64,000 bases of DNA from IMG/VR virus record IMGVR_UViG_3300034110_000988, one strand, 5' to 3'. The DNA comes from an uncultured virus (IMG/VR IMGVR_UViG_3300034110_000988) (lineage: Duplodnaviria; Heunggongvirae; Uroviricota; Caudoviricetes). This document shows, piece after piece, positions 2,157 through 63,519 of the stretch (within the stretch, counting starts at the first letter, position 1; the number at the start of each line of letters is the position of its first letter). The notes under the pieces are model-generated. The model searched no databases. It saw nothing but the letters and a program-made list of their open reading frames with translations, and was not told the origin of the DNA. Both the position numbers and the translations under genes were made by a program.

Positions 2157-3509
2157 ATGCTAAATATTGTTGCTGCGTTTATGGCGATTACGACCGCCAT
2201 TACCTACCTTAACTACAAATTTTTCAAACTACCCCATGCGATTGGCGTCATGTTTGGTGCTTTGTTGCTGAGTTTCAGTATTCAAGCAGCTACCTATTTT
2301 GGTTATCCTTTCATGCAGTATACTGCTATTGATATGATTTCCAAGATTGACTTCCATGAGCTGTTGATGGTGTGGATTCTTCCAGCATTGCTGTTTGCGG
2401 GTTGCTTGACTGTTAACGTCAGCGATTTGAAAACACACAAATGGGCCATTGCTGGTTTGGCTACGCTTGGGGTTGTCATTGCAACAGTAGTTATTGGATT
2501 CTGCACCTTCCAAGTCCTTAACTCTCTTGGATTGAAAGTAAGCTTGCTGTATTGCTTCTTGTTTGGTGCATTGATTAGCCCAACTGATCCTATTGCAGTC
2601 ATGGGAATTTTGAGAAATGCGGGTGCCCCAAAGAACTTGCGAGTAACCATTGTGGGTGAATCATTGTTCAATGACGGGACAGCCATCGTAGCGTTTGCCA
2701 TCTTGTTTGCTTTGGTAACATCGGGTGGCGAACCAACCTTGTCTCATGCTGGTATGTTGTTCTTGCAAGAAGCTGTTGGTGGTGTGTTCTTTGGTTTGGC
2801 TTTGGGTGGTGCTACCGTGCTGTTGCTCAAAACCATTGATGAAGCTCATATTGCAGTAATGGTGACGTTGGTGATGGTTATCGGTGGTGCGACATTGGCA
2901 AGTAAGTTGCACGTTTCTGCACCTTTGGCTATTGTGATTGCTGGCCTTTGCTTGGGTCATAAAGAATTCAACCACATGAATGAGCAAACTCACAAAGTGG
3001 TCAATAGCTTCTGGCATATTGTTGATGAATTCTTGAACGGTATGTTGTTTGCTCTTATCGGTCTTGAACTGTTGATTGTGAAGTTTGACCTGCTACATGT
3101 TGTGATTGCTGTAACGATGTTTGTAGTGTTGGTTCTTAGCCGTCTATTGACTGTTATTCCGCCACTGGCTCTTATGAAGAAACTTCGTAAAGACACTGGC
3201 TTTGGGCCGGGTAGTGCTGCAATCTTGGCTTGGGGTGGTCTGCGTGGTGGTGTGTCGATTGCACTGGTCTTGTCGCTACCTTCAAGCCCTGAGAAAGACA
3301 TTCTGTTGCCTCTGACTTACATCATTGTGTTGGGTTCCATCCTCATTCAAGGTTTGACTGTTGGTAAGCTGGTTAAAATCTTGTTTGACAAGGACAAAAA
3401 CAATGTGTTGGACGAGTATGAAAACAGTCATGGTCACGGTGAAGTAAATGCCAAGCCTGTTGTGGAAATTGTCCAGCCAGCAATTGAACACAAGATCGAT
3501 ACTCATTGA
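2157..3509 (+). CDS. nhaP: Na+/H+ antiporter, CPA1 family
   Basis: About 12 TM segments; FGALISPTDPIAV, GESLFNDG and WGGLRG motifs. Confidence 0.95.
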   Translation: MLNIVAAFMAITTAITYLNYKFFKLPHAIGVMFGALLLSFSIQAATYFGYPFMQYTAIDMISKIDFHELLMVWILPALLFAGCLTVNVSDLKTHKWAIAGLATLGVVIATVVIGFCTFQVLNSLGLKVSLLYCFLFGALISPTDPIAVMGILRNAGAPKNLRVTIVGESLFNDGTAIVAFAILFALVTSGGEPTLSHAGMLFLQEAVGGVFFGLALGGATVLLLKTIDEAHIAVMVTLVMVIGGATLASKLHVSAPLAIVIAGLCLGHKEFNHMNEQTHKVVNSFWHIVDEFLNGMLFALIGLELLIVKFDLLHVVIAVTMFVVLVLSRLLTVIPPLALMKKLRKDTGFGPGSAAILAWGGLRGGVSIALVLSLPSSPEKDILLPLTYIIVLGSILIQGLTVGKLVKILFDKDKNNVLDEYENSHGHGEVNAKPVVEIVQPAIEHKIDTH

Positions 3510-6519: not shown

Positions 6520-7236
6520 TTATTGTTTTTCTAAGCTTACATATGTGCCTACACGACGACCAATAGCAATAGATGATAGATTGCCTTTCCCCATTACATC
6601 GCACACCACAATAGGAATATTAAAGTCTTTACACATTGTAAATGCTGTCATGTCCATGACTTCTAAGTTCTGGTCGATGGCTTCTTTAAAAGTTAAGGTA
6701 TCGTATTTAACAGCGTCTGGGTATTTGTTGGGGTCTTTATCATAAATGCCGTCTACTTTCGTGGCTTTAATGATAATATCGCAGTTGAGTTCTTGTGCTT
6801 TCAGACTGGATGCTGTGTCGGTGGTAGAGAAAGGGTTCCCGGTACCGGCTGATAAAATGACAATACGTTTCTTACTGAGGTGTTTCATGGCTTTCAATCG
6901 TATGAAAGGTTCAGCAACTTGGTTTACCCCTATGGCTGTCATTACACGGTTTTCAATGCCTTTAGACTTCAAAACATCCTGCAGATACAATCCATTCATA
7001 ACAGTGGCTAACATACCCATGTAATCAGCCGTGGCTGGATCAACGCCATGACCATTTAAACTTTTACCTCGACAGATGTTCCCGCCGCCGACCACAATAG
7101 CAATTTCTACACCCATTTTATGAATGCTGGCAATTTCGTTTACAATTGCATTGACCGCTTCTTTGCCATATCCAAATTTCTCATCTCCCATCAGGGATTC
7201 GCCGCTTAACTTTAACAAGATACGATTATATTTCAT
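6520..7236 (-). CDS. pyrH: UMP kinase
   Basis: RILLKLSGE, VVGGGN, ADYMGMLAT, GTGNPFSTTD, KATKVDGIYD.DP, VMDMTA. Confidence 0.97.
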   Translation of the reverse strand: MKYNRILLKLSGESLMGDEKFGYGKEAVNAIVNEIASIHKMGVEIAIVVGGGNICRGKSLNGHGVDPATADYMGMLATVMNGLYLQDVLKSKGIENRVMTAIGVNQVAEPFIRLKAMKHLSKKRIVILSAGTGNPFSTTDTASSLKAQELNCDIIIKATKVDGIYDKDPNKYPDAVKYDTLTFKEAIDQNLEVMDMTAFTMCKDFNIPIVVCDVMGKGNLSSIAIGRRVGTYVSLEKQ

Positions 7237-8732: not shown

Positions 8733-9215
8733 ATGGAACTCATTGAAGATTTGACCGAAGAACAAATTATTGCTCAAGCCGAGATGAACTCCCGGCCAGA
8801 TGATGCTCCTTATTATTACATGTACAGCATTCTTCGCACTGACATTCATATGCTTGAAGGCAAAATGCTCTCGCAGTCTGGTCATGCCTTCACCGATTCT
8901 TTGTTAGCTGCACAGAAAAAGAAACCCGAAGTGTGTGATCAGTATCGTGCATGGTGTAACGAACACCGGGACGCCTTCAATGGTGGTGCTAAGGTCAACA
9001 TGAAAGCCAAAAACAGTTCTCAACTGGTGAAGGCATATAATATTGCTCGAAAGGCTGGTATTCCTTGTGCGATTGTTGTTGATCGTGATCATATCCATCC
9101 GCCACACTTCAATGGTCAATTGATTATTACTGCTCTTGGTCTTGGGCCTTGTACTCAGGAAGAAGCTTATCAAATTACGAAACGATTCACTTGTATTCAG
9201 GATAAGTTGAAATAA
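8733..9215 (+). CDS. pth2: peptidyl-tRNA hydrolase, Pth2 family
   Basis: ILRTDI.M..GKM.SQ.GHA, AKV.MK, IVVD, TALGLGP motifs. Confidence 0.88.
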   Translation: MELIEDLTEEQIIAQAEMNSRPDDAPYYYMYSILRTDIHMLEGKMLSQSGHAFTDSLLAAQKKKPEVCDQYRAWCNEHRDAFNGGAKVNMKAKNSSQLVKAYNIARKAGIPCAIVVDRDHIHPPHFNGQLIITALGLGPCTQEEAYQITKRFTCIQDKLK

Positions 9216-9268: not shown

Positions 9269-9376
9269 GGGAAACCTCTTCGGCCCTTATAACATTGCAT
9301 CGAAAACCGAGTCAGGACCGGAAGGTAGCAGCTCTATTGGTGTCAATGTGTGTAAGTCAGTTTGAAGAGGTTTTCC
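9269..9376 (+). ncRNA. ffs: bacterial small SRP RNA (4.5S)
   Basis: Helix-8 motif TCAGG-ACC-GGAA-GGT-AGCAGC within a long hairpin closed by a 15-bp stem GGGAAACCTCTTCGG/TTGAAGAGGTTTTCC, followed by a T tract. Confidence 0.92.
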
Positions 9377-21427: not shown

Positions 21428-21563
21428 AAAAATAGTTTAAAAAAAAAGATTGACTAAACAGTTTTAAATTGTTATGATTACTGTATTAAAGCCCACGGCG
21501 GTTTTCCTCATTGGAGTATGTTGATTTTTTGACATATAACGTAAAAGTTACTGCTGTTTATTT

Positions 21564-21637
21564 GCGGAATTGGCATAGTGGCTGTGCTCCAGCCTTCCAA
21601 GCTGGCTACACGAGTTCGATCCTCGTATTCCGCTCCA
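21564..21637 (+). tRNA. tRNA-Gly(TCC)
   Basis: GCGGAAT/ATTCCGC, CCAGC-CTTCCAA-GCTGG, TCCA end. Confidence 0.95.
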
Positions 21638-21649
21638 GATTTGAAAGTA

Positions 21650-21740
21650 ATGGTGCTAAGGTATGCCCATGTAAAAAAAAGAAAGCCTGTAGATAAGATG
21701 TGGTGCCAGAGATAAGCCCACGCTAAAAAAAGAAATACTC
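21650..21740 (+). repeat. two 50-nt-period structured repeats (putative pseudoknot ncRNA)
   Basis: RTGGTGC-N8/9-GCCCAY-G(C)T-A7/8-GAAA occurs twice, with compensatory changes. Confidence 0.6.
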
Positions 21741-21748
21741 AATAGAAT

Positions 21749-21772
21749 GAGCCTCGAAAGAGGTTTTTTTTT
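21749..21772 (+). terminator. intrinsic terminator of tRNA-Gly transcript
   Basis: GAGCCTC-GAAA-GAGGTTT plus T run. Confidence 0.8.
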
Positions 21773-21839: not shown

Positions 21840-22226
21840 TTATGCATCTTCATTTATAAGTTTATCTTTGTTTTCATCCATCCATTGATACAACGACTCT
21901 TCACCATAATGACCCAGATCTTTCATGTTTTTTAATTCTGTGTAGTCTTCTTTCAATTGGTTCTTATCTTTCACTCGATAAATATAAACTCGATAACTAT
22001 ACATGAAATTCTTGGTATACTCATTTTCAATTTCTTGAATAGCTTGTTCAGTATCATCAATTAAAAGGATATCAGTAATCCCGCAAAATTGATCACGCAT
22101 TTCCACAAGAACCAGTAACTTTGGTTTTTCAAACAAAGCCGCTTCCATCATCTTTTTGAGTTCATCTTTTTTGATTTCAATCGTTCGCTCAAGATCTCGA
22201 ATTTCTTCTTTAAATTGCTCAATCAT
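21840..22226 (-). CDS. hypothetical protein
   Basis: GAGG RBS on minus strand. Confidence 0.7.
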   Translation of the reverse strand: MIEQFKEEIRDLERTIEIKKDELKKMMEAALFEKPKLLVLVEMRDQFCGITDILLIDDTEQAIQEIENEYTKNFMYSYRVYIYRVKDKNQLKEDYTELKNMKDLGHYGEESLYQWMDENKDKLINEDA

Positions 22227-27769: not shown

Positions 27770-27869
27770 TTTTTGTTCTCAAATAAACCGCCTTCTTGGC
27801 GGTTTTTTGTTGCTTAATAGGTTCTTTCTTGTTATAATGGCTCCATCAAACATCATAGGAATTACGACC

Positions 27870-28793
27870 ATGTTTAAAGTTTTCACTCACTCTCAACAAT
27901 TTCACATTGACGAACTCATCGCCATTGCTCTTTTGAGCGAGTATCACTTTGACAAAACCAAAGGGAATGAAAAAGGTCTATACACCGTAGTCCGAACCCG
28001 TGATGAAAAAATTCTCGAAGAAGCTCGTAAAGATCCAGAAGCTTTTGTGATTGACGTGGGTGGTGTTTATGACCCAGCCATGTTGAACTTTGACCACCAC
28101 CAGAATGATCCTAACCTGTGCTGGCCGGATGGTTTGCCTTATTCTTCTTGTGGTATCGTTTGGAAATGGTTGCGTGAAACCAAGAAACTTCACCAGCACA
28201 TGAACGAAGACACCATGAATATTTTCGAAAATGATTTGATTCGTCGTGTCGATAAACATGATAACGGTTTGGAAAAAATGTCTGAACTCATTCTGCTTAT
28301 CATGTATAACCGCAAACCTGATGATCCACGGGCACAAGACCGTCAGTTCAAAATGGCTTCGCGTGCTGCAAAAGACTACTTGAAAAACTACTTTACTTAC
28401 GTTCGTGGCAACATGAAAGCTGAAAAAGAAATCGTGAAAGCGATTGAATCAAGCAAAGATTACAAAGATATTGTTGTTTGTGAAAGCAACGTGAAAGACG
28501 CTTCCAAGCGTATTGCTCAACTGACTGACAAGAAAATGGTAATCTACCCACACAGCAATGGTATGTGGGCGATTAAAACCGTGCCATCCGATCCACGCAA
28601 CGACTTTTCTCAGAAATGTCCTGCACCGAAAGAATGGTTGGGCTTGAAGGAAAAAGAACTGGAAGCCGTTTCTGGTATTCAAGGGCTTTACTTCTGCCAT
28701 AAAGGGGGCTTTTTGACCTTTTATCGCGGTTCGATTGAAGACGCAATCAAGGTGGCTCGCGTTATCATCTTGAAACATGAAGGCCATATGTAA
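27870..28793 (+). CDS. MYG1 (UPF0160) family nuclease
   Basis: THSQQFHIDE, VRTRD, IDVGGVYD...FDHHQ, FCHKGGF. Confidence 0.93.
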   Translation: MFKVFTHSQQFHIDELIAIALLSEYHFDKTKGNEKGLYTVVRTRDEKILEEARKDPEAFVIDVGGVYDPAMLNFDHHQNDPNLCWPDGLPYSSCGIVWKWLRETKKLHQHMNEDTMNIFENDLIRRVDKHDNGLEKMSELILLIMYNRKPDDPRAQDRQFKMASRAAKDYLKNYFTYVRGNMKAEKEIVKAIESSKDYKDIVVCESNVKDASKRIAQLTDKKMVIYPHSNGMWAIKTVPSDPRNDFSQKCPAPKEWLGLKEKELEAVSGIQGLYFCHKGGFLTFYRGSIEDAIKVARVIILKHEGHM

Positions 28794-42220: not shown

Positions 42221-42874
42221 ATGAAAAAAATTAAAACGTTGTTCGTGATTGACCGTAACACCGATATGGCTACCGATGTGCTGACTGCTGGTGCAGAGTG
42301 GGTTATTCGTGGCGAAGGTAAAGCAACCATCAAGTTTGACGGTTCTTCTGCCTACTTTGCTGAGGGTAAGTTGTTCAAACGCTTTGACCGTAAATTGAAG
42401 TCTAACTTCTCTAAGATGGCTCGTAGCATGGGCGACAAGTTTGTGCCAGAAGATCACATGTTTAACGAAGTTCCAGAAGGTGCTATTCCTTGCGAAGCGG
42501 CTCCTGCAGCTCACAGTCTTCACTTCCCACACTGGGTTCCAGTTGGTGACGGCCCAGAAGACAAGTTCCATCGTGAAGCTCTGGAAAATGCGGGTGATCT
42601 TAAAGATGGTGCAACTTATGAGTTGGTTGGCCCAAAAGTTAATGGTAATCCATACAAACTGGAACGCCATGAGTTGTGGGAACATGGAAGTGTTGATTTT
42701 GAAGTGACTGACTTTACCTTTGAAGGGCTTAAAAAACTCTTTGCTGAGAAGTTGGTTAATGAGGAAGGCTTGGTGTTCCATCACCCAGACGGACGCATGA
42801 TTAAACTCAGAAACAAAGACTTTTCGTTTGCAACTTTCGGTAAATTTGACGAACGTAGTAAAAAGAAAAAATGA
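42221..42874 (+). CDS. ATP-dependent RNA ligase-like protein (DUF5565 type)
   Basis: KFDG motif I, TYELVGPKVNGNP, EGLVFH, MIKLR. Confidence 0.85.
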   Translation: MKKIKTLFVIDRNTDMATDVLTAGAEWVIRGEGKATIKFDGSSAYFAEGKLFKRFDRKLKSNFSKMARSMGDKFVPEDHMFNEVPEGAIPCEAAPAAHSLHFPHWVPVGDGPEDKFHREALENAGDLKDGATYELVGPKVNGNPYKLERHELWEHGSVDFEVTDFTFEGLKKLFAEKLVNEEGLVFHHPDGRMIKLRNKDFSFATFGKFDERSKKKK

Positions 42875-55917: not shown

Positions 55918-57762
55918 ATGAATTTGAAAGAAAGTTTACGAACTATTGAGAAAGCTACCAGTCGTGTTGTCGATACAGGTTGGGAGACTTTATATGGAGA
56001 TCGTTTAAATTATAATGAAATGTATTTTATACCTCATTTAAAAAACAATAAAGCTAATAGAAAAATGGCTCAGGTGCCTCTACTATCGGATACGATTACT
56101 AAATTATCCGACTGTGTTGAAACTATCAAAAACACTGATATTCATTCATTCAGTACAGTTGCTGAAATCAATCTCTATGGTTCCCACGTATACCCTTCTG
56201 AGATGGATAAACAGAACATCACTAAACGGACATTGCTCGACTATGAATCAAATAAAGCATGGCTTGATTTTTATTCTGCTGAAATGAGTGGATCTCGTGC
56301 ATTTGATGAAGATCTGTCAGATTACCTTGAAGATCAAGTTATCGCTATTAATCGTATAGCTGAACAACTGGAAAAGCAACATGTTAATATTAATAAGTTT
56401 TTAATGTTTAACTACACCGTGACTAATCAGTTGTCTATTTCATTGCAACATGAAGAAGATAGAGCTTACGTTGCTGAATCCGCTATCAACTACATTACCA
56501 ACAATCTTCCAGACATCGAAGCTTTTAAATCCTTATATGCAGACTATGTGGCTGCTAATGATAAGTTTTTAACCGATGTTAAAGCGGAACTCGTTAAAAT
56601 CAATCCAGACACCTTTGTTACGAATGCTGACTTGTTTATATCAACCTTGGCGAAGAACAGTGGTACTAATGCTGTCGAAGGATTCTTGATTGAAAAAATG
56701 TTGACAGACGACTCTGTTATTACTTCTGTTGATTTTACTGCAGGACAAGCTATTAATAAGGCCATTCTTTTTGATGATGCGAGTATTGCTTATAAACAAG
56801 ATGGTCAATACCATACATTCAAAGACAACCAAAGTCTTGATAATTTCATGTATACGCTAAACCATAGTGCTCTTTCTTACATATTAAGAAAAAAGCCAAC
56901 CACTATTCCTTTTTTCAAAGAAAAATTAATAGAAGACAAAAATTACAATAACGCCATTAGTGCAGCTACATCGTTTATTGATAATTACACTGTTTTGAAA
57001 CAATATAACTATGATCTCAATTCTTTCAAAGATAAAAGTTTTGAAGCCATTGATGATGAAATTAACCATGTTGTTGACAAGAACAAAATTAAACAATATG
57101 CATTTAGTATTCTTAGTTCTAAAAATAAACACTTATTTAATGATGAAACAGAGCCTTATTTCAAAGCATTGTTTGACAACAATGTAACGACATCACAACT
57201 CCAAACGTTTGTAGGCAAAAAACTGGCAGCTCTACATTCTAACGGAGACGTTATTACGATGTTGAACGGTATTCGTAACCATTTCGATGGATTTACTCAG
57301 GAAGCTCTAACGTTGAAATTAGAAGCTTTTGCTATTGAAAAATTACATGACCAAGACAATGTGGTTACTTTTGCTGTTGCTAATTACGTTCAATGTGAAG
57401 CGTTAGGATCAACATCTTGGTGTATTGTTCGAGATCAAGAATACTACGATCAGTATGTTACTGACCATCGTAATATCCAGTATATGATGTATGACTTCAA
57501 CAAACCATCCACTGACATCAATTCTATGATTGGCTTCACTGTAGACCGTTCTGGGGCTATTTATGCTGAACACTTGAAAAATGATGATGCTATTCATTCA
57601 TATAGCAAAGATGAACAATTGACGCATATACAAACCAATACTATTTATCAAAACAGAAAGAACCATAAATTATCAGAAGAAACCCTATTTGCAATGGAAG
57701 AAACTCTGGGCATTCAGGATGTTGTCAAAAACACTAAACCTTTAAAAATGAGAAATATATGA
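55918..57762 (+). CDS. large hypothetical protein A (G.TSWCI domain), copy 1
   Basis: Paralog of 60284..62116; LGSTSWCIVRD..Y..QY, MIGFTV. Confidence 0.85.
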   Translation: MNLKESLRTIEKATSRVVDTGWETLYGDRLNYNEMYFIPHLKNNKANRKMAQVPLLSDTITKLSDCVETIKNTDIHSFSTVAEINLYGSHVYPSEMDKQNITKRTLLDYESNKAWLDFYSAEMSGSRAFDEDLSDYLEDQVIAINRIAEQLEKQHVNINKFLMFNYTVTNQLSISLQHEEDRAYVAESAINYITNNLPDIEAFKSLYADYVAANDKFLTDVKAELVKINPDTFVTNADLFISTLAKNSGTNAVEGFLIEKMLTDDSVITSVDFTAGQAINKAILFDDASIAYKQDGQYHTFKDNQSLDNFMYTLNHSALSYILRKKPTTIPFFKEKLIEDKNYNNAISAATSFIDNYTVLKQYNYDLNSFKDKSFEAIDDEINHVVDKNKIKQYAFSILSSKNKHLFNDETEPYFKALFDNNVTTSQLQTFVGKKLAALHSNGDVITMLNGIRNHFDGFTQEALTLKLEAFAIEKLHDQDNVVTFAVANYVQCEALGSTSWCIVRDQEYYDQYVTDHRNIQYMMYDFNKPSTDINSMIGFTVDRSGAIYAEHLKNDDAIHSYSKDEQLTHIQTNTIYQNRKNHKLSEETLFAMEETLGIQDVVKNTKPLKMRNI

Positions 57763-59195
57763 AAAAAGCGACTGCAGAAGATTTTTTAACTTTACTTGAT
57801 GATTTCAAATTATCCAATAATATCACGGATACTAACTTTGACTATTATGCAACCTTGAAATTTTGTAGGTCTACATTTTTGAATGATTTTTATGATATTT
57901 CTCTTGTGAAAACAGACTCTCAACAATATCCTATTTTATTGCAAATGAATGGTAAAGCACTTGTTTTTAAAATGAAAGATGCTAATTTTGCTGGTATTTC
58001 TGAGGATGAAATCAAGAATGTTGTGCCTTTTTTGACAAAAAAAGACTATTCTCATGTCAGTCATCTAAACACTATATTAAAAGAGAGCACATCGTTTAAA
58101 TCGTTTGTTGATAATATTAATACTGTATTTGGTGAAGGGTTTGATTTACATGATTTAAGTGGTGTTTCGAAAAATATCATGGCTTTTAATATTGCTGATA
58201 CACTTAATACATTAGTGAAAAAATTAAAAGATGTAGATGTAAAAGATTATGATATCAAATATTCATTACAAATATTAGAAGATGACTTATCTTCGGATAT
58301 ATTTATTGGACGTGGGATTGACGTATCACAAATGTCACATGATTTTAAGCGTTATGTTTCGCCTAACCAAAGTGGCTATTCAGGTGATACAGAAACTTAT
58401 TATGATAGCTTAATGGAAAAATATTATAAACACTTAGATCAGTATTTTGATTTGTTTAAATTTCAGCAGACGTTAAAAACAGGAATTATGCTTAATTCAA
58501 CAACTGATGAAAAACTATTAGACACACCATTATTAAATGAGTTTATTACCATTGTTAAAGCTAACCAACCAACTTGGTTTCAGTCGTTTGATGAATCAAT
58601 GGTTCACTCAAGGACCGATGATAACGCTATTAGAGCCGCTGGCACACCTTTGATTGATAAGAGTGCTGACTTTGATTTGATTAATTCTATATTGTGTCGA
58701 GCAAGTGTTTATCCATCCACTATAGATGGATACACTAATGTTTCAGAAATTTTTATGAAAGAAGATACTAACTCAGTTCATTTGTATGGAGATAATGTAT
58801 TCTTTAAACCTTATTACCATAACCTTATTATCAAGGAAAAAGAAAATCTAAATATTTGCACTTATATTCATTCTGAAATGGGCTTGTCTTTAAGTGATGA
58901 TATGAAATTCAGCTTCCTTTTACCTGTATTGGATTATTTAGAAAAAAATAAAATAATTCTTGATTTAGCTGATAGTAATGATTATTACTTAACTTTCTTG
59001 AATTATATAAAGAAGGAAGATCTATCAGCACTTATAAAAGAAAAATACCCTAATCTTATCTTTTTAAACTTTGATAAAGACCTTAAAAAATCTATTGAGA
59101 TTAGTCATGCAACGTCTTTTAAGGATGCATTGAAAATCTATAAGCAAGATGAGAAACCAACGCCTAAAACGACTAAATTAAAAAACGCCTTGTAA
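57759..59195 (+). CDS. hypothetical protein B, copy 1
   Basis: ATGA overlap with A; paralog of 62113..63519. Confidence 0.85.
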   Translation: MKKATAEDFLTLLDDFKLSNNITDTNFDYYATLKFCRSTFLNDFYDISLVKTDSQQYPILLQMNGKALVFKMKDANFAGISEDEIKNVVPFLTKKDYSHVSHLNTILKESTSFKSFVDNINTVFGEGFDLHDLSGVSKNIMAFNIADTLNTLVKKLKDVDVKDYDIKYSLQILEDDLSSDIFIGRGIDVSQMSHDFKRYVSPNQSGYSGDTETYYDSLMEKYYKHLDQYFDLFKFQQTLKTGIMLNSTTDEKLLDTPLLNEFITIVKANQPTWFQSFDESMVHSRTDDNAIRAAGTPLIDKSADFDLINSILCRASVYPSTIDGYTNVSEIFMKEDTNSVHLYGDNVFFKPYYHNLIIKEKENLNICTYIHSEMGLSLSDDMKFSFLLPVLDYLEKNKIILDLADSNDYYLTFLNYIKKEDLSALIKEKYPNLIFLNFDKDLKKSIEISHATSFKDALKIYKQDEKPTPKTTKLKNAL

Positions 59196-60283: not shown

Positions 60284-62116
60284 ATGAATTTAAAAGACGG
60301 TTTAAGAAGTATTGAATCATTAAACAACATTGTTCACTATGAATCACTACATGGCGAAAATGATGTCCGTTTGAATTATAATGAAATGACCTTTATTCCT
60401 TATCTCAGTAAGAATAAAGGAAACAAATATATTAGAAATAAAAATGCTCTTAAAGATGCTGTTGAAACACTGGCTGGTTTCGTTTCTATTATTGAAGAAA
60501 CCGATTTGAATACATTGACGACCATACCAGATGTCGTTAAATTTTCAGCTCGTTTTTCAAGAGGCTTGTTTGATTCTGATGGCATTTCTGCACACACCAA
60601 AACACAAGCAGAATTTAATGGTGCATGGATAGACTTTTATGCGTATGGCATTAAAACTGACACTAAAAATCCACGTATTATTAATAAAATTGAAGACCAA
60701 CGTGAAGAAATCAATCATATTGGTCAAGAATTAGATAAAAAATACAAAGAGCTTAGTAACTTTCTTTTATTCCACTACACATTACTTCAACAACTACCAA
60801 AGTCTTTGTTACATGAAGAAGATCGTGCTTATGTGGTGAAGAGTATCAACACCTACACAGAACAAATGCCAGACATTAATAACATTCGTTTATTACAACA
60901 AAAATATCAAGACTTAAATAATCAGTTTCTGGTTGATATTAAACAACACATTGTTGATATTGCCCCTGACACCTTTATATCAAAAGCAGACGCTTTCATC
61001 TCGAAGGAACATGAACACCAAACTAACAATACTGTTGAAAACTTCTTGAATGCTAAGATGTTGTCAGAAGATGTGAAAGTTGCTCTTGAATTCACTGCAG
61101 CTCAAAAAATTCAAAAAGTCTTTTTATTTGATGATAAGAGCATCGCCTATAAAAGAAACAACGAGTATCATACGATTAAGGATTCGAACGCTATATCTCT
61201 GTTTATTAATGAACTTCACCATGACAGTCTATCTTTTATTCTTAGAAAAAAACCAACGACGATTGCGTTCTTTCAAAATAAATTAAAAGAAGATGGCGGT
61301 TACTCAAATGCCATTAAAGCCGCGAGTTCTTTTGTTGAGCATTCACAAGTATTAAAACAATATAACTTTGATTTAAATACCTTAAAAGACAAAGGATTTG
61401 AAGCGATTGATGACACTATCAACAACTTGGTTTACAAAAATAAAGTTAAACAGTTTGCATTCAGTATTTTGAGTGCTAAATATAAACACCATTTCAACAC
61501 TGAAACTGAACCTTATTTCAAAGACCTCTTTGACAATAATGTGACGACTTCTCAATTACAGACGTTTGTCGGCAAAAAGATTGCTGCTTTGAAATCAAAC
61601 GAAGATGTTATCAAGATGATCAATGGTATGTTGGATCACTTCAATGGATTTACACAAGAAGCTTTGACTGAAAAACTTCAATCTTTGGGGATTGAGAAGA
61701 TACATGACGCTAATAACGCTGTCAGTTTCGAAGTGTCTACCTATGAACAATGTAAGGCATTAGGTACCACATCTTGGTGTATTGTGCGTGATGAAGACTA
61801 TTTCAACCAGTATGTGCATGATAGAGGCAATCGCCAGTATATTATTTATGACTTCAATAAATTATCGACAGACATTGAATCCATGATTGGTTTCACCGTT
61901 GAAGACAATGGCGACATCTATGCTGAACACTGGAAAAATGATGATTCGATTAGTCGTTATAATAAAGCAGATATGTTGACTCACATTCAAACTAATACTA
62001 TTTATAATAACCAATCACGTCATTCTTTATCAGAAGGAACGATTGTTGATATGGAAGACATTCTTAATATAAAAGATGTCAAAAAGAATAAACCTTTAAA
62101 AATGAGAGTGGCATGA
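60284..62116 (+). CDS. large hypothetical protein A, copy 2
   Basis: Paralog of 55918..57762. Confidence 0.85.
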   Translation: MNLKDGLRSIESLNNIVHYESLHGENDVRLNYNEMTFIPYLSKNKGNKYIRNKNALKDAVETLAGFVSIIEETDLNTLTTIPDVVKFSARFSRGLFDSDGISAHTKTQAEFNGAWIDFYAYGIKTDTKNPRIINKIEDQREEINHIGQELDKKYKELSNFLLFHYTLLQQLPKSLLHEEDRAYVVKSINTYTEQMPDINNIRLLQQKYQDLNNQFLVDIKQHIVDIAPDTFISKADAFISKEHEHQTNNTVENFLNAKMLSEDVKVALEFTAAQKIQKVFLFDDKSIAYKRNNEYHTIKDSNAISLFINELHHDSLSFILRKKPTTIAFFQNKLKEDGGYSNAIKAASSFVEHSQVLKQYNFDLNTLKDKGFEAIDDTINNLVYKNKVKQFAFSILSAKYKHHFNTETEPYFKDLFDNNVTTSQLQTFVGKKIAALKSNEDVIKMINGMLDHFNGFTQEALTEKLQSLGIEKIHDANNAVSFEVSTYEQCKALGTTSWCIVRDEDYFNQYVHDRGNRQYIIYDFNKLSTDIESMIGFTVEDNGDIYAEHWKNDDSISRYNKADMLTHIQTNTIYNNQSRHSLSEGTIVDMEDILNIKDVKKNKPLKMRVA

Positions 62117-63519
62117 AGAAAGCAACCAGTAAAGAGTTCTTAGACTTATTAAACGATTTTAAAATAAAAAATAATATTGAAGGTAATACGTTTGATTATT
62201 ATGCAACGTTTAAATTTTATAAATCGACATTTTTGAATGGGTTTTATGATATGTCGTTGGTCAAAACTGATCATATTGAACACCCGGTCATGATTAAACA
62301 CTCAACGTCTAGTTTACTTGAATTGGGGGATGAAAGGTTCACAACATTAGGTGCTAACAATATAGACTATATACCTGTACTAAAAGATGAATATGTTGAC
62401 CATATAAAATACATGTTTAATGCTTTACAAAATAGTAACAGTTTTAAAAGTTTTGTTAATGCCGCTATTGCTGATACCCATAATGTTCATTCTAGTTTCA
62501 TTTCGAATAAAGACAACATTTATCCTCATCCTGATTTCAGAAATGAAAAAACAATTAAAATGGTAGATGCTTTTTTAGGGTTAAAGAATGCTGTAGAAGA
62601 GGAATTGAAACGAGAAAAAAGTAATGAAACTGGACTTCTTTACTATCTTGACAATTTAATTGAAAAAATGCCCCGTGATAGTCTAAGAAAGTATCAAATT
62701 GTCAGTGTTTTTAGAGGCCGCGAAACCAATGATCCAGATATTGTTATGGACAAACTTTATGAACAATTTGAGCCTCATTTTCAATTATTTAAAATTGAAA
62801 AAATGTTGAACTATGGTCGATTGCTGAATGCAATCACTGAAAAAGCTACGATTGATACACCATTGCTTAACCATTTTATTGAAACAATAAAAGAAGCCCA
62901 CCCAGAATGGTTTGTGACTTTTGATGAATCGTTAACTCATTGCATAACTGACGACAACGCTATTAGGGCTGCTGGCATACCTTTGGTTGATATGACGGCT
63001 GATTTTGATTTGATTGACCCCAAATCGTTTATGGCGACCGCCTATCCTAGCTATACTGATGGGTTTTCTCATATCTCTAACCGTTTTAAAGATGCTGAAA
63101 CAAACTTTGTTCATTTGTATGGTGATAATGTCTTTTTTAAGGCTTATTATCACAACCTTCATATCGAACAAGACAATGGCCTTACTTACTGTAAAAGTGT
63201 GGATTCGGATGTGGCGTTCTGTTTAAAAGATTCCAACAGAAAAGATTTCATTACACCTGTTTTAGATTACTTAGATAAAAACGAAATCGTTCTTAATCTT
63301 TCAAGAGACAGCACACTTTATCATCACATTAAAAAAGATGATTTAGCAGTATTAGTGAAAAGCGAATACCCTAATCTTGTTTTTATTAATGATGAACTTG
63401 GTTACAAGAAGTTAGGGGCTATTTTTGAGGCTAAAACTTATAAGGAAGCTCTTTCTATTTATCAAGGGACTGATGAGCAAGCGGTTGCTAAAAGAATAAA
63501 AAATAAAGCTGGTCTTTAA
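62113..63519 (+). CDS. hypothetical protein B, copy 2
   Basis: ATGA overlap; TDDNAIRAAG and VHLYGDNVFFK shared with copy 1. Confidence 0.85.
   Translation: MKKATSKEFLDLLNDFKIKNNIEGNTFDYYATFKFYKSTFLNGFYDMSLVKTDHIEHPVMIKHSTSSLLELGDERFTTLGANNIDYIPVLKDEYVDHIKYMFNALQNSNSFKSFVNAAIADTHNVHSSFISNKDNIYPHPDFRNEKTIKMVDAFLGLKNAVEEELKREKSNETGLLYYLDNLIEKMPRDSLRKYQIVSVFRGRETNDPDIVMDKLYEQFEPHFQLFKIEKMLNYGRLLNAITEKATIDTPLLNHFIETIKEAHPEWFVTFDESLTHCITDDNAIRAAGIPLVDMTADFDLIDPKSFMATAYPSYTDGFSHISNRFKDAETNFVHLYGDNVFFKAYYHNLHIEQDNGLTYCKSVDSDVAFCLKDSNRKDFITPVLDYLDKNEIVLNLSRDSTLYHHIKKDDLAVLVKSEYPNLVFINDELGYKKLGAIFEAKTYKEALSIYQGTDEQAVAKRIKNKAGL

Follow-up and report, generated by a model that had tools for sequence, protein, structure and literature searches.

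Two tandem RNA repeats were identified between a tRNA-Gly gene and its terminator in the DNA of an uncultured virus of the Caudoviricetes (IMG/VR record IMGVR_UViG_3300034110_000988; the whole 64,000-nucleotide stretch that was analysed is referred to here as the window). Comparison with plasmid loci makes it very probable that these units are repeats of the TenpI type. TenpI is the antitoxin RNA of the TenpIN systems, which belong to the type III toxin-antitoxin class of abortive-infection defences. As the TenpI array is conserved, lacks a toxin gene, lies in a phage-like genome and has its own promoter together with a tRNA, it is best read as a decoy: the two units would constitute a phage-borne antitoxin directed against TenpN abortive infection, a reading to which we assign, from homology and context, a probability of about 0.55.

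The repeats belong to a compact arrangement on the plus strand. It opens with a sigma-70-type promoter (21450..21478; TTGACT-17-TATGAT with a TG extension, 10 of 12 consensus matches), which is followed by a structured 5' leader (21495..21557), a tRNA-Gly gene with anticodon UCC and an encoded CCA end (21564..21637; found by ARAGORN and scoring 59.8 bits with the Rfam tRNA model) and a 12-base spacer (21638..21649), in which comparison of the records revealed an invariant TTTGAAAG. The 3' end of the spacer reads AGAT in two relatives, and AGAT is the motif preceding most TenpI repeats. Unit 1 occupies 21650-21688 and unit 2 occupies 21700-21740; the 11-base linker between them (21689..21699) ends in AAGAT, the repeat boundary motif. 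Downstream lies an intrinsic terminator consisting of GAGCCTC GAAA GAGGTTT plus a T run (21749..21772; hairpin 21749-21766). An earlier note on this DNA had described two units 50 nt apart between tRNA-Gly and the terminator, and their letters were read exactly as given there. Its statement that no same-strand gene follows the units also held in the window, where the next open reading frame (21840-22226) is on the minus strand, is convergent and has its own bidirectional terminator (21810-33). In one RNA-library run (X19), a single 159-base contig, possibly derived from DNA, covered 21503-21659.

For the leader, RNAalifold predicted from four records a closing stem with three hairpins, with compensatory changes at columns 13:75 (AU/UA) and 37:52 (UA/GC) and further one-sided changes that also keep the pairs; the single-sequence fold gave a z score of -2.79. 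The anticodon stem of tRNA-Gly likewise covaries between records according to RNAalifold. No Rfam match was obtained for the leader, and neither the leader nor the trailer has a paralogue in the window or in the 290-kb related record G001 presented below. The leader is part of the same conserved transcription unit as tRNA-Gly and the repeats.

The whole block, promoter and terminator included, was found again in three metagenome contigs, in one record of IMG/VR and in three sequencing runs (X2, X4, and X7). A strict pattern recovered a single relative in IMG/VR (locus L001 in record G001, of 290 kb, classed as a provirus and with 96% CheckV completeness), and scans using the tRNA 3' end or the leader recovered only this same record. 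The metagenome scan returned 45 loci, three of which are true relatives and contain the two units at a 50-base spacing: L115, on a contig of 1.54 Mb, is identical to L001 over the locus; L122, on a contig of 1.86 Mb, is nearly identical to the window; and L151 lies on a contig of 132 kb. All 63 loci from the pattern scan of genome contigs were coding or chance matches with no relative among them, all 38 loci from the viral pattern scan with a narrower gap were unrelated, and a search for related loci with a 614-aa protein of the window found no relative. Local alignment of the locus by blastn against phages gave tRNA matches only, in five records, and against plasmids only the Priestia array described below.

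The four-record alignment revealed that conservation spans the promoter, the leader of about 75 bases, the tRNA, both units and the terminator, with both flanks unrelated. It starts at the -35 hexamer, from which all four aligned records are alike and before which they are not. The contigs from runs X2, X4, and X7 cover the conserved block with few changes. Between the window and L115, differences were counted at 16 of 80 positions in the leader, 12 of 74 in the tRNA, 0 of 39 in unit 1 and 9 of 42 in unit 2; unit 1 was without difference over its 39 positions in all three relatives. The sole variant seen in unit 1 is 21685 G>A (runs X2 and X4), by which a U-G pair in stem 2 becomes U-A. When the window is compared with G001, proteins encoded nearby share only 42-76% identity, and the flanks of other tRNA genes are unconserved. 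Since the block is conserved between unrelated flanks, diverged neighbour proteins and unconserved flanks of other tRNA genes, it is, as judged from these alignments, a self-contained non-coding transcription unit under purifying selection, of which unit 1 is the most constrained part.

In unit 1 (ATGGTGCTAAGGTATGCCCATGTAAAAAAAAGAAAGCCT), stem 1 is predicted to form between 21650-53 plus 21655-56 and 21665-70, with U21654 bulged and a loop at 21657-64; the A-rich strand (21671-84) leads to the 3' strand of stem 2 (21685-88), which pairs with 21659-62 in the loop. In unit 2 (GTGGTGCCAGAGATAAGCCCACGCTAAAAAAAGAAATACTC), stem 1 joins 21700-03 plus 21705-06 to 21716-21 around a loop at 21707-15, and the A-rich strand (21722-37) is followed by the 3' strand of stem 2 (21738-40), paired with 21709-11. 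A pattern derived from the units matched twice in the window, 50 bases apart, where 0.00 matches were expected from 100 shuffles. With filters off, the unit covariance model gave 73.2 and 61.9 bits on the units and no more than 16.2 bits elsewhere in the 64 kb; as this model was built from these very units, its scores show only the absence of a third copy in the window.

The earlier note had proposed a tandem H-type pseudoknot with an A-rich loop, pointing to covariation of the stem 1 closing pair (A-U in unit 1, G-C in unit 2) and of the loop-to-tail pairing (AGG/CCU in unit 1, GAG/CUC in unit 2). Both covariations were recovered, the second with a further form, GAA/UUC, in two related records, and the pseudoknot gained support from covariation once relatives were included. 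The four orthologous records by themselves retain every one of the 19 proposed pairs but provide thin evidence, as a single pair covaries (in unit 2, where G-C of stem 2 becomes A-U). In a combined alignment of 12 rows (six from this locus and its relatives, six from plasmid TenpI repeats), 96.3% of cells pair, as compared to 83.6% in shuffles (none of 500 reached the observed value) and 31-57% in slid controls. Five of the nine pairs change on both sides: in stem 1 the closing pair and the innermost one, and in stem 2 all three. A loop-shuffling test gave a summed loop-to-tail complementarity of 44 against a shuffled mean of 31.5 for ten plasmid and genome TenpI units (0 of 5000 reached it), and 17 against 12.1 for the four distinct units here (reached by 42 of 5000). 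Covariation in stem 1 and in the loop-to-tail stem 2 thus supports the prediction of an H-type pseudoknot.

The hairpins of units 1 and 2 alone are marginally stable (-6.2 and -6.8 kcal/mol), which is consistent with a fold that depends on tertiary contacts or on protein. The trailer alone gave a z score of -1.47 and the unit 1 hairpin -0.58, and with scores this weak the case for the repeats is independent of thermodynamic stability. An alternative RNAalifold structure, in which the A tracts pair with U tracts of the leader or terminator, explains less than the TenpI fold. According to PMC12283969, tenpI repeats are longer and not identical to one another; their stem 1 is conserved, A-minor contacts have been proposed for their A stretch, and stem 2 covaries. 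The units match this description in their stem 1, A stretch and covarying stem 2, as predicted here from covariation. Cryo-EM of an Enterobacteriaceae TenpIN system showed a pseudoknot core in a 2:2 complex, and both non-identical repeats rescued TenpN toxicity (PMC13682666).

At Rfam gathering thresholds, only tRNAs and the SRP RNA were detected in the window. The sole non-tRNA Rfam match of note was to 6A (RF02925), with 23.8 bits for unit 2 and 14.1 bits for unit 1, where the cut-off is 41.2; across the 290 kb of G001, unit 2 (24.9 bits) and unit 1 (19.3 bits) are again the best two 6A matches. Taken alone this match is weak, because 7 of 151 Lactobacillales genomes contain unrelated sequences scoring 27-29 bits. 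Membership of the units in 6A was rejected on their scores, genuine copies reaching 59.6 and 67.5 bits. These genuine copies were found in one of 151 Bacillota genomes, in tandem with a period of 50, with a promoter before and a terminator after them. The same-strand open reading frame that follows encodes a TenpIN family toxin by NCBIfam NF047358 (143.4 bits, cut-off 90), so that 6A is a TenpI antitoxin array in that one locus. This TenpN was recognised by NCBIfam and missed by Pfam, by PADLOC and by phmmer against the PDB. As a by-product, a family that Rfam lists as an sRNA is a TenpI antitoxin array in the sole genuine locus examined. The 6A repeats share with the units the AGAU start, a hairpin, the GUAAAUAAAAAGAAA strand, a GAGC/GCUC loop-to-tail pairing, the AAUAGA end and the tandem 50-base period, although the sequence of stem 1 is entirely different and the genuine 6A locus has a TenpN gene downstream.

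TenpN homologues were found in 285 plasmid records, 201 of them predicted to be conjugative, and TenpN scored above the cut-off in 4 of 401 sampled Bacillota genomes. Six plasmid loci were examined, from Yersinia pseudotuberculosis, E. coli, Vibrio harveyi, Fusobacterium, Clostridium estertheticum and Leptotrichia. All six TenpN reading frames pass NF047358 (112-143 bits), and upstream of every one lie repeats of one build: after an AGAU-type boundary come a hairpin and an A-rich strand, and the tail is complementary to the loop of that hairpin. In Yersinia pseudotuberculosis, repeat 1 reads AGAU-GUGGUGG-AAGGAUGUU-CCCCAC-GUAAAAAAAAGAAG-CAUCC... and repeat 2 reads AGAU-GUGGUGG-AAGAACAG-CCCCAC-GUUAAAAAAAGAAG-UGUUC..., followed by the terminator. 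This array aligns colinearly, end to end, with unit 1, unit 2 and the terminator of the window, and the terminator here is colinear with the one that separates tenpI from tenpN on the Yersinia plasmid. The array of a Priestia flexa plasmid is colinear with the locus too.

Covariance models gave the same correspondence in both directions. Model R1, built from the units of the window, scored 47.5 and 32.2 bits on the Yersinia repeats, 26.0 on the E. coli repeat and 24.8 on the 6A repeat. Model R3, built from five Yersinia, E. coli and Vibrio repeats only, placed unit 2 first in the window (43.7 bits, E 2.4e-8) and unit 1 second (20.6 bits, E 0.018), with the next match at 18.9 bits; in G001 the copies of unit 2 and unit 1 rank first and second with 35.6 and 29.0 bits, the next match being at 18.7. 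No match at E<=0.001 was obtained with R3 in 151 gammaproteobacterial genomes. By R3 in the window, unit 1 is marginal as a TenpI repeat, and its position and the copy in G001 contribute to its assignment.

The array might instead be a TenpI-derived RNA that is no longer toxin-directed and that serves as a stable tRNA 3' trailer, as an sRNA or sponge, or as an element for processing or stability of the tRNA-Gly precursor. The location of the units in the tRNA 3' trailer before the terminator would suit such a role, as would a leader that is likewise structured and conserved. The A-rich strands of the units could bind Hfq-like proteins. The use of tRNA spacers as sponges has been described as well (PMC7213987). 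However, all the TenpI hallmarks are kept, including stem 2 covariation and the AGAU boundaries, which would be unexpected if a generic structure or a pairing seed alone were needed, and we consider this alternative rather unlikely.

Several other identities were examined. The earlier note had compared the units to preQ1-I aptamers, a likeness that proved superficial: the Rfam PreQ1 model (RF00522) gave 12.8 bits against a cut-off of 39. The preQ1-I identity was rejected on its alignment, in which only stem 1 and the A tract correspond, the conserved loop UUCG.AACCAUC is missing and the tail has about double the length, and also on location, as the units lie in a tRNA 3' trailer with a convergent gene downstream and not in the 5' UTR of a queuosine gene. 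Real preQ1-I members score 39-55 bits and share UUCG.AACCAUC; matches at or above the cut-off occurred in 23 of 81 Lactobacillales genomes. A pair of preQ1-I-like ligand-binding aptamers acting as a metabolite sponge is therefore highly improbable: its weak Rfam match is far under the cut-off, the loop consensus is missing, the units are not in a 5' UTR, TGT and QueC were not found in the 290 kb of G001, and TenpI homology is enough to explain every feature in common with real aptamers (the GUGGU...CCCAC stem, the A tract and the C that precedes the 3' strand of stem 1).

ToxI, ToxN, AbiQ and TenpN had been named together in the earlier note, and of these the TenpIN family fits and the others do not. 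ToxI/ToxN, with near-identical 36-base repeats followed by ToxN, was rejected as the units are non-identical and 50 bases long, and at E<=10 no Rfam antitoxin family matched at the locus except for a weak OrzO-P match. A mimic of CRISPR repeats was set aside (only a 14-bit match, to the T run), as was a dnaX-like A-AAA-AAG frameshift site, for which there is no open reading frame and whose motif is not conserved in L115. A CsrA or Shine-Dalgarno decoy, a codon mimic, a tmRNA and a Y-RNA-like element received no support from Rfam or ARAGORN, and the 3'-protective triplex offered in the earlier note found no specific support. Its interpretation thus survives in the structure and in the antitoxin mimic, which is favoured here by homology to the TenpI repeats found upstream of TenpN genes and by the absence of the toxin gene; the preQ1-I likeness was abandoned.

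The toxin gene was sought with a TenpN HMM built from the 120-200-aa subset of 94 TenpN homologues. In six frames this model found no TenpN in the window, in G001 or in the flanks of L115, L122, and L151, and it recovered all four positive controls (L202, L204, L205, and L206). NF047358 gave no match in G001, and NCBIfam and PADLOC revealed no toxin among the 23 neighbouring open reading frames within about 6 kb; Pfam ToxN had no match in G001, in a search that carried no positive control. In TenpI systems, TenpN lies directly downstream on the same strand, and such a gene was found nowhere within the 64-kb window or the 290-kb G001. The gene after the terminator varies, being convergent in the window and an unrelated same-strand reading frame in G001. 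These results also make it improbable that the array belongs to a complete type III system with an unrecognised toxin of another or new family, whether its gene lies close to the array or farther off on the element. Type III toxins diverge widely, the true TenpN beside 6A was missed by Pfam, PADLOC and PDB sequence searches, and most neighbouring reading frames here are without a family; against this, a cognate toxin is expected directly downstream on the same strand, the gene in that position differs between relatives, and the 64 plus 290 kb contain no TenpN-like frame.

The carrier of the array resembles a jumbo phage. The window showed matches to PHROG families with E values down to 1e-49, one of them an RNA ligase, and its proteins have homologues in Rak2-like and other huge phages. 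G001 contains 35 tRNA genes, all on one strand and two with a CUA anticodon; a 16S gene was not found in it. Both the window and G001 carry an SRP RNA, and also a UMP kinase, a PTH2 peptidyl-tRNA hydrolase and a Na+/H+ exchanger. PyrH shows about 50% identity to proteins of several phyla, and a hint of Bacteroidota from the Atlas is not decisive.

As the block occurs on contigs of 1.54 and 1.86 Mb and IMG/VR labels G001 as a provirus, the element may reside in a cell as a prophage or as part of something larger, and it could there have a function different from counter-defence. The array could then be a resident anti-addiction or immunity RNA of a prophage or island, which would neutralise the TenpN of incoming plasmids or mobile elements and allow the cell to lose or tolerate them, without being a lytic counter-defence. 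The provirus class, the two long contigs and the frequency of TenpN on plasmids (the 285 records, 201 predicted conjugative) are in line with this possibility, to which the jumbo-phage-like gene content is opposed, and it is best regarded as a minority explanation. Its mechanism, binding of TenpN, is the same as that of the decoy, and the beneficiary alone differs.

In the decoy reading, a TenpI array has lost the link to its toxin gene and now forms part of the 3' trailer in a tRNA-Gly transcription unit. It would be transcribed together with the tRNA from its own strong promoter and would be freed by tRNA processing or by TenpN itself. The repeats would then keep host TenpN inhibited after host transcription stops, so that abortive infection would be blocked. 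In characterised TenpIN systems, both of the two non-identical repeats bind the TenpN endoribonuclease, which is thereby neutralised in a 2:2 complex (PMC13682666), and TenpIN aborts T4-like phages (PMC5449768). A wider proposal, which we advance tentatively and at slightly less than even odds, is that huge phages carry a fixed, toxin-less two-repeat TenpI array in a tRNA-Gly operon as a constitutive decoy for host TenpN. No description of toxin-less tenpI arrays in phages was found in the literature, and the main text of PMC12283969 contains neither 'orphan' nor 'tRNA'.

If the proposal is true, the array would be the first natural, non-laboratory-evolved RNA counter-defence against the TenpIN family, and RNA antitoxin mimicry would be a standing strategy in nature that reaches a family widely found on enterobacterial, staphylococcal and clostridial plasmids. 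The tRNA and the structured leader would form a built-in scaffold for expression and processing, the absolute conservation of repeat 1 would mark toxin-binding specificity, and decoys could hide in tRNA operons, overlooked by annotation pipelines. The two natural variant repeats could also be used to map TenpN recognition.

Among known systems, the closest is tenpI, for example that of plasmid p_153kb from Yersinia pseudotuberculosis IP 31758 or of the Enterobacteriaceae system solved by cryo-EM (PMC13682666). The locus shares with it two non-identical tandem repeats of about 50 bases running from promoter to intrinsic terminator, the AGAU boundary, a stem 1 of the form GUGG-N-GN/NCCCAC, a GU(U)AAAAAAAGAA strand and the loop-to-tail stem 2. 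It differs in that a structured leader and a tRNA-Gly gene are interposed between promoter and repeats, in that no tenpN follows the repeats, and in its carrier, a huge phage-like element; in addition, the innermost stem 1 pair, G-C in the plasmid arrays, is C-G here. The preQ1-I aptamers have in common with the units a small H-type pseudoknot, an A-rich 3' strand and a similar stem 1. The 3' external transcribed spacer of E. coli glyW-cysT-leuZ is comparable as a functional RNA in a tRNA 3' trailer (PMC7213987), whereas that spacer base-pairs with small RNAs and has no repeats, pseudoknot or relation to toxin-antitoxin systems.

With respect to function, the decoy would be the natural counterpart of the pseudo-ToxI mimicry of the Pectobacterium phage PhiTE, which escapes ToxIN abortive infection by means of a pseudo-ToxI RNA that suppresses the host toxin (PMC5449768). 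This RNA came from laboratory escape mutants and was then the sole phage case worked out (PMC5449768, 2017). In both cases, phage-borne repeats without a toxin gene resemble a type III antitoxin, although the families differ, being ToxI/ToxN in PhiTE and TenpI/TenpN here; and whereas the active form in PhiTE arose by repeat expansion in laboratory escape mutants, the two-repeat array described here is conserved in several natural lineages.

The tRNA-Gly block with its two TenpI-like (RNA antitoxin) units is shared by contigs of very different length. The IMG/VR entry holding this block (G001) is a 290-kb piece labelled provirus, whereas the metagenome contigs L115 and L122, both of which hold it as well, reach the megabase scale, with 1,539,155 and 1,859,102 bases, respectively, and to our knowledge exceed every known phage by far in size. 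Gene content was compared between the window and G001, and homologues within a range of 75-89% identity were found for a Na+/H+ exchanger (window 2157-3509), a UMP kinase (6520-7236), a PTH2-type peptidyl-tRNA hydrolase (8733-9215), a MYG1-family protein (27807-28793) and an RNA ligase (42221-42874). Because these homologues are dispersed across G001, the five genes are assigned to the element and not to host flank.

Both records also carry a bacterial-type small SRP RNA, located at 9276-9371 in the window (58.6 bits) and at 183334-183429 in G001 (58.7 bits; cut-off 40 in both cases), and the two genes adjoin homologous small ORFs. An SRP RNA is unusual in a phage-like element, and a literature search found no report of one. 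In addition, the window contains two successive pairs of large ORFs that match no family, one pair of 614 and 478 aa (55918-59195) and the next of 610 and 468 aa (60284-63519). The 614- and 610-aa ORFs both align with one and the same region of G001, with about 44% identity, which suggests that a two-gene cassette was duplicated.

Analysis of the whole 290 kb of G001 (L171-L185) revealed 35 tRNA genes, all on a single strand, with Leu(UAA), Arg(UCU) and Met(CAU) each present in many copies. Two tRNAs have the anticodon CUA and are expected to read TAG, which may indicate stop-codon recoding.

Around the tRNA-Gly itself, the leader on its 5' side (window 21495-21557) is predicted to form three hairpins held together by a closing stem, in a cloverleaf-like shape, and comparison of the records showed compensatory changes; the leader matched no Rfam family and gave no tRNA call. 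Directly after the terminator in G001, and on the same strand, begins an ORF (MNTTESVIERFKALHGDLYDYS...CPVC...; L001, about 1420-1200, minus strand), which resembles a small insertion of the zinc-ribbon or homing-endonuclease type and has no counterpart in the window.

Regarding known type III systems, Rfam family 6A (RF02925), typed 'sRNA' by Rfam, forms in genome G305 (L200/L203, 615-715) an array of two repeats, after which come a terminator and a TenpN toxin gene; at this one genuine locus, 6A is the antitoxin of a type III system, and related arrays lie upstream of TenpN in C. estertheticum and in genome G329. At L206 in genome G541, the stretch at about 1300-1500 holds three diverged copies of a repeat of about 60 bases, in which the pairing between loop and tail covaries. 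They lie 5' of an ORF with a weak, below-cut-off TenpN match (34.8 bits), and together these may represent a distant type III system.
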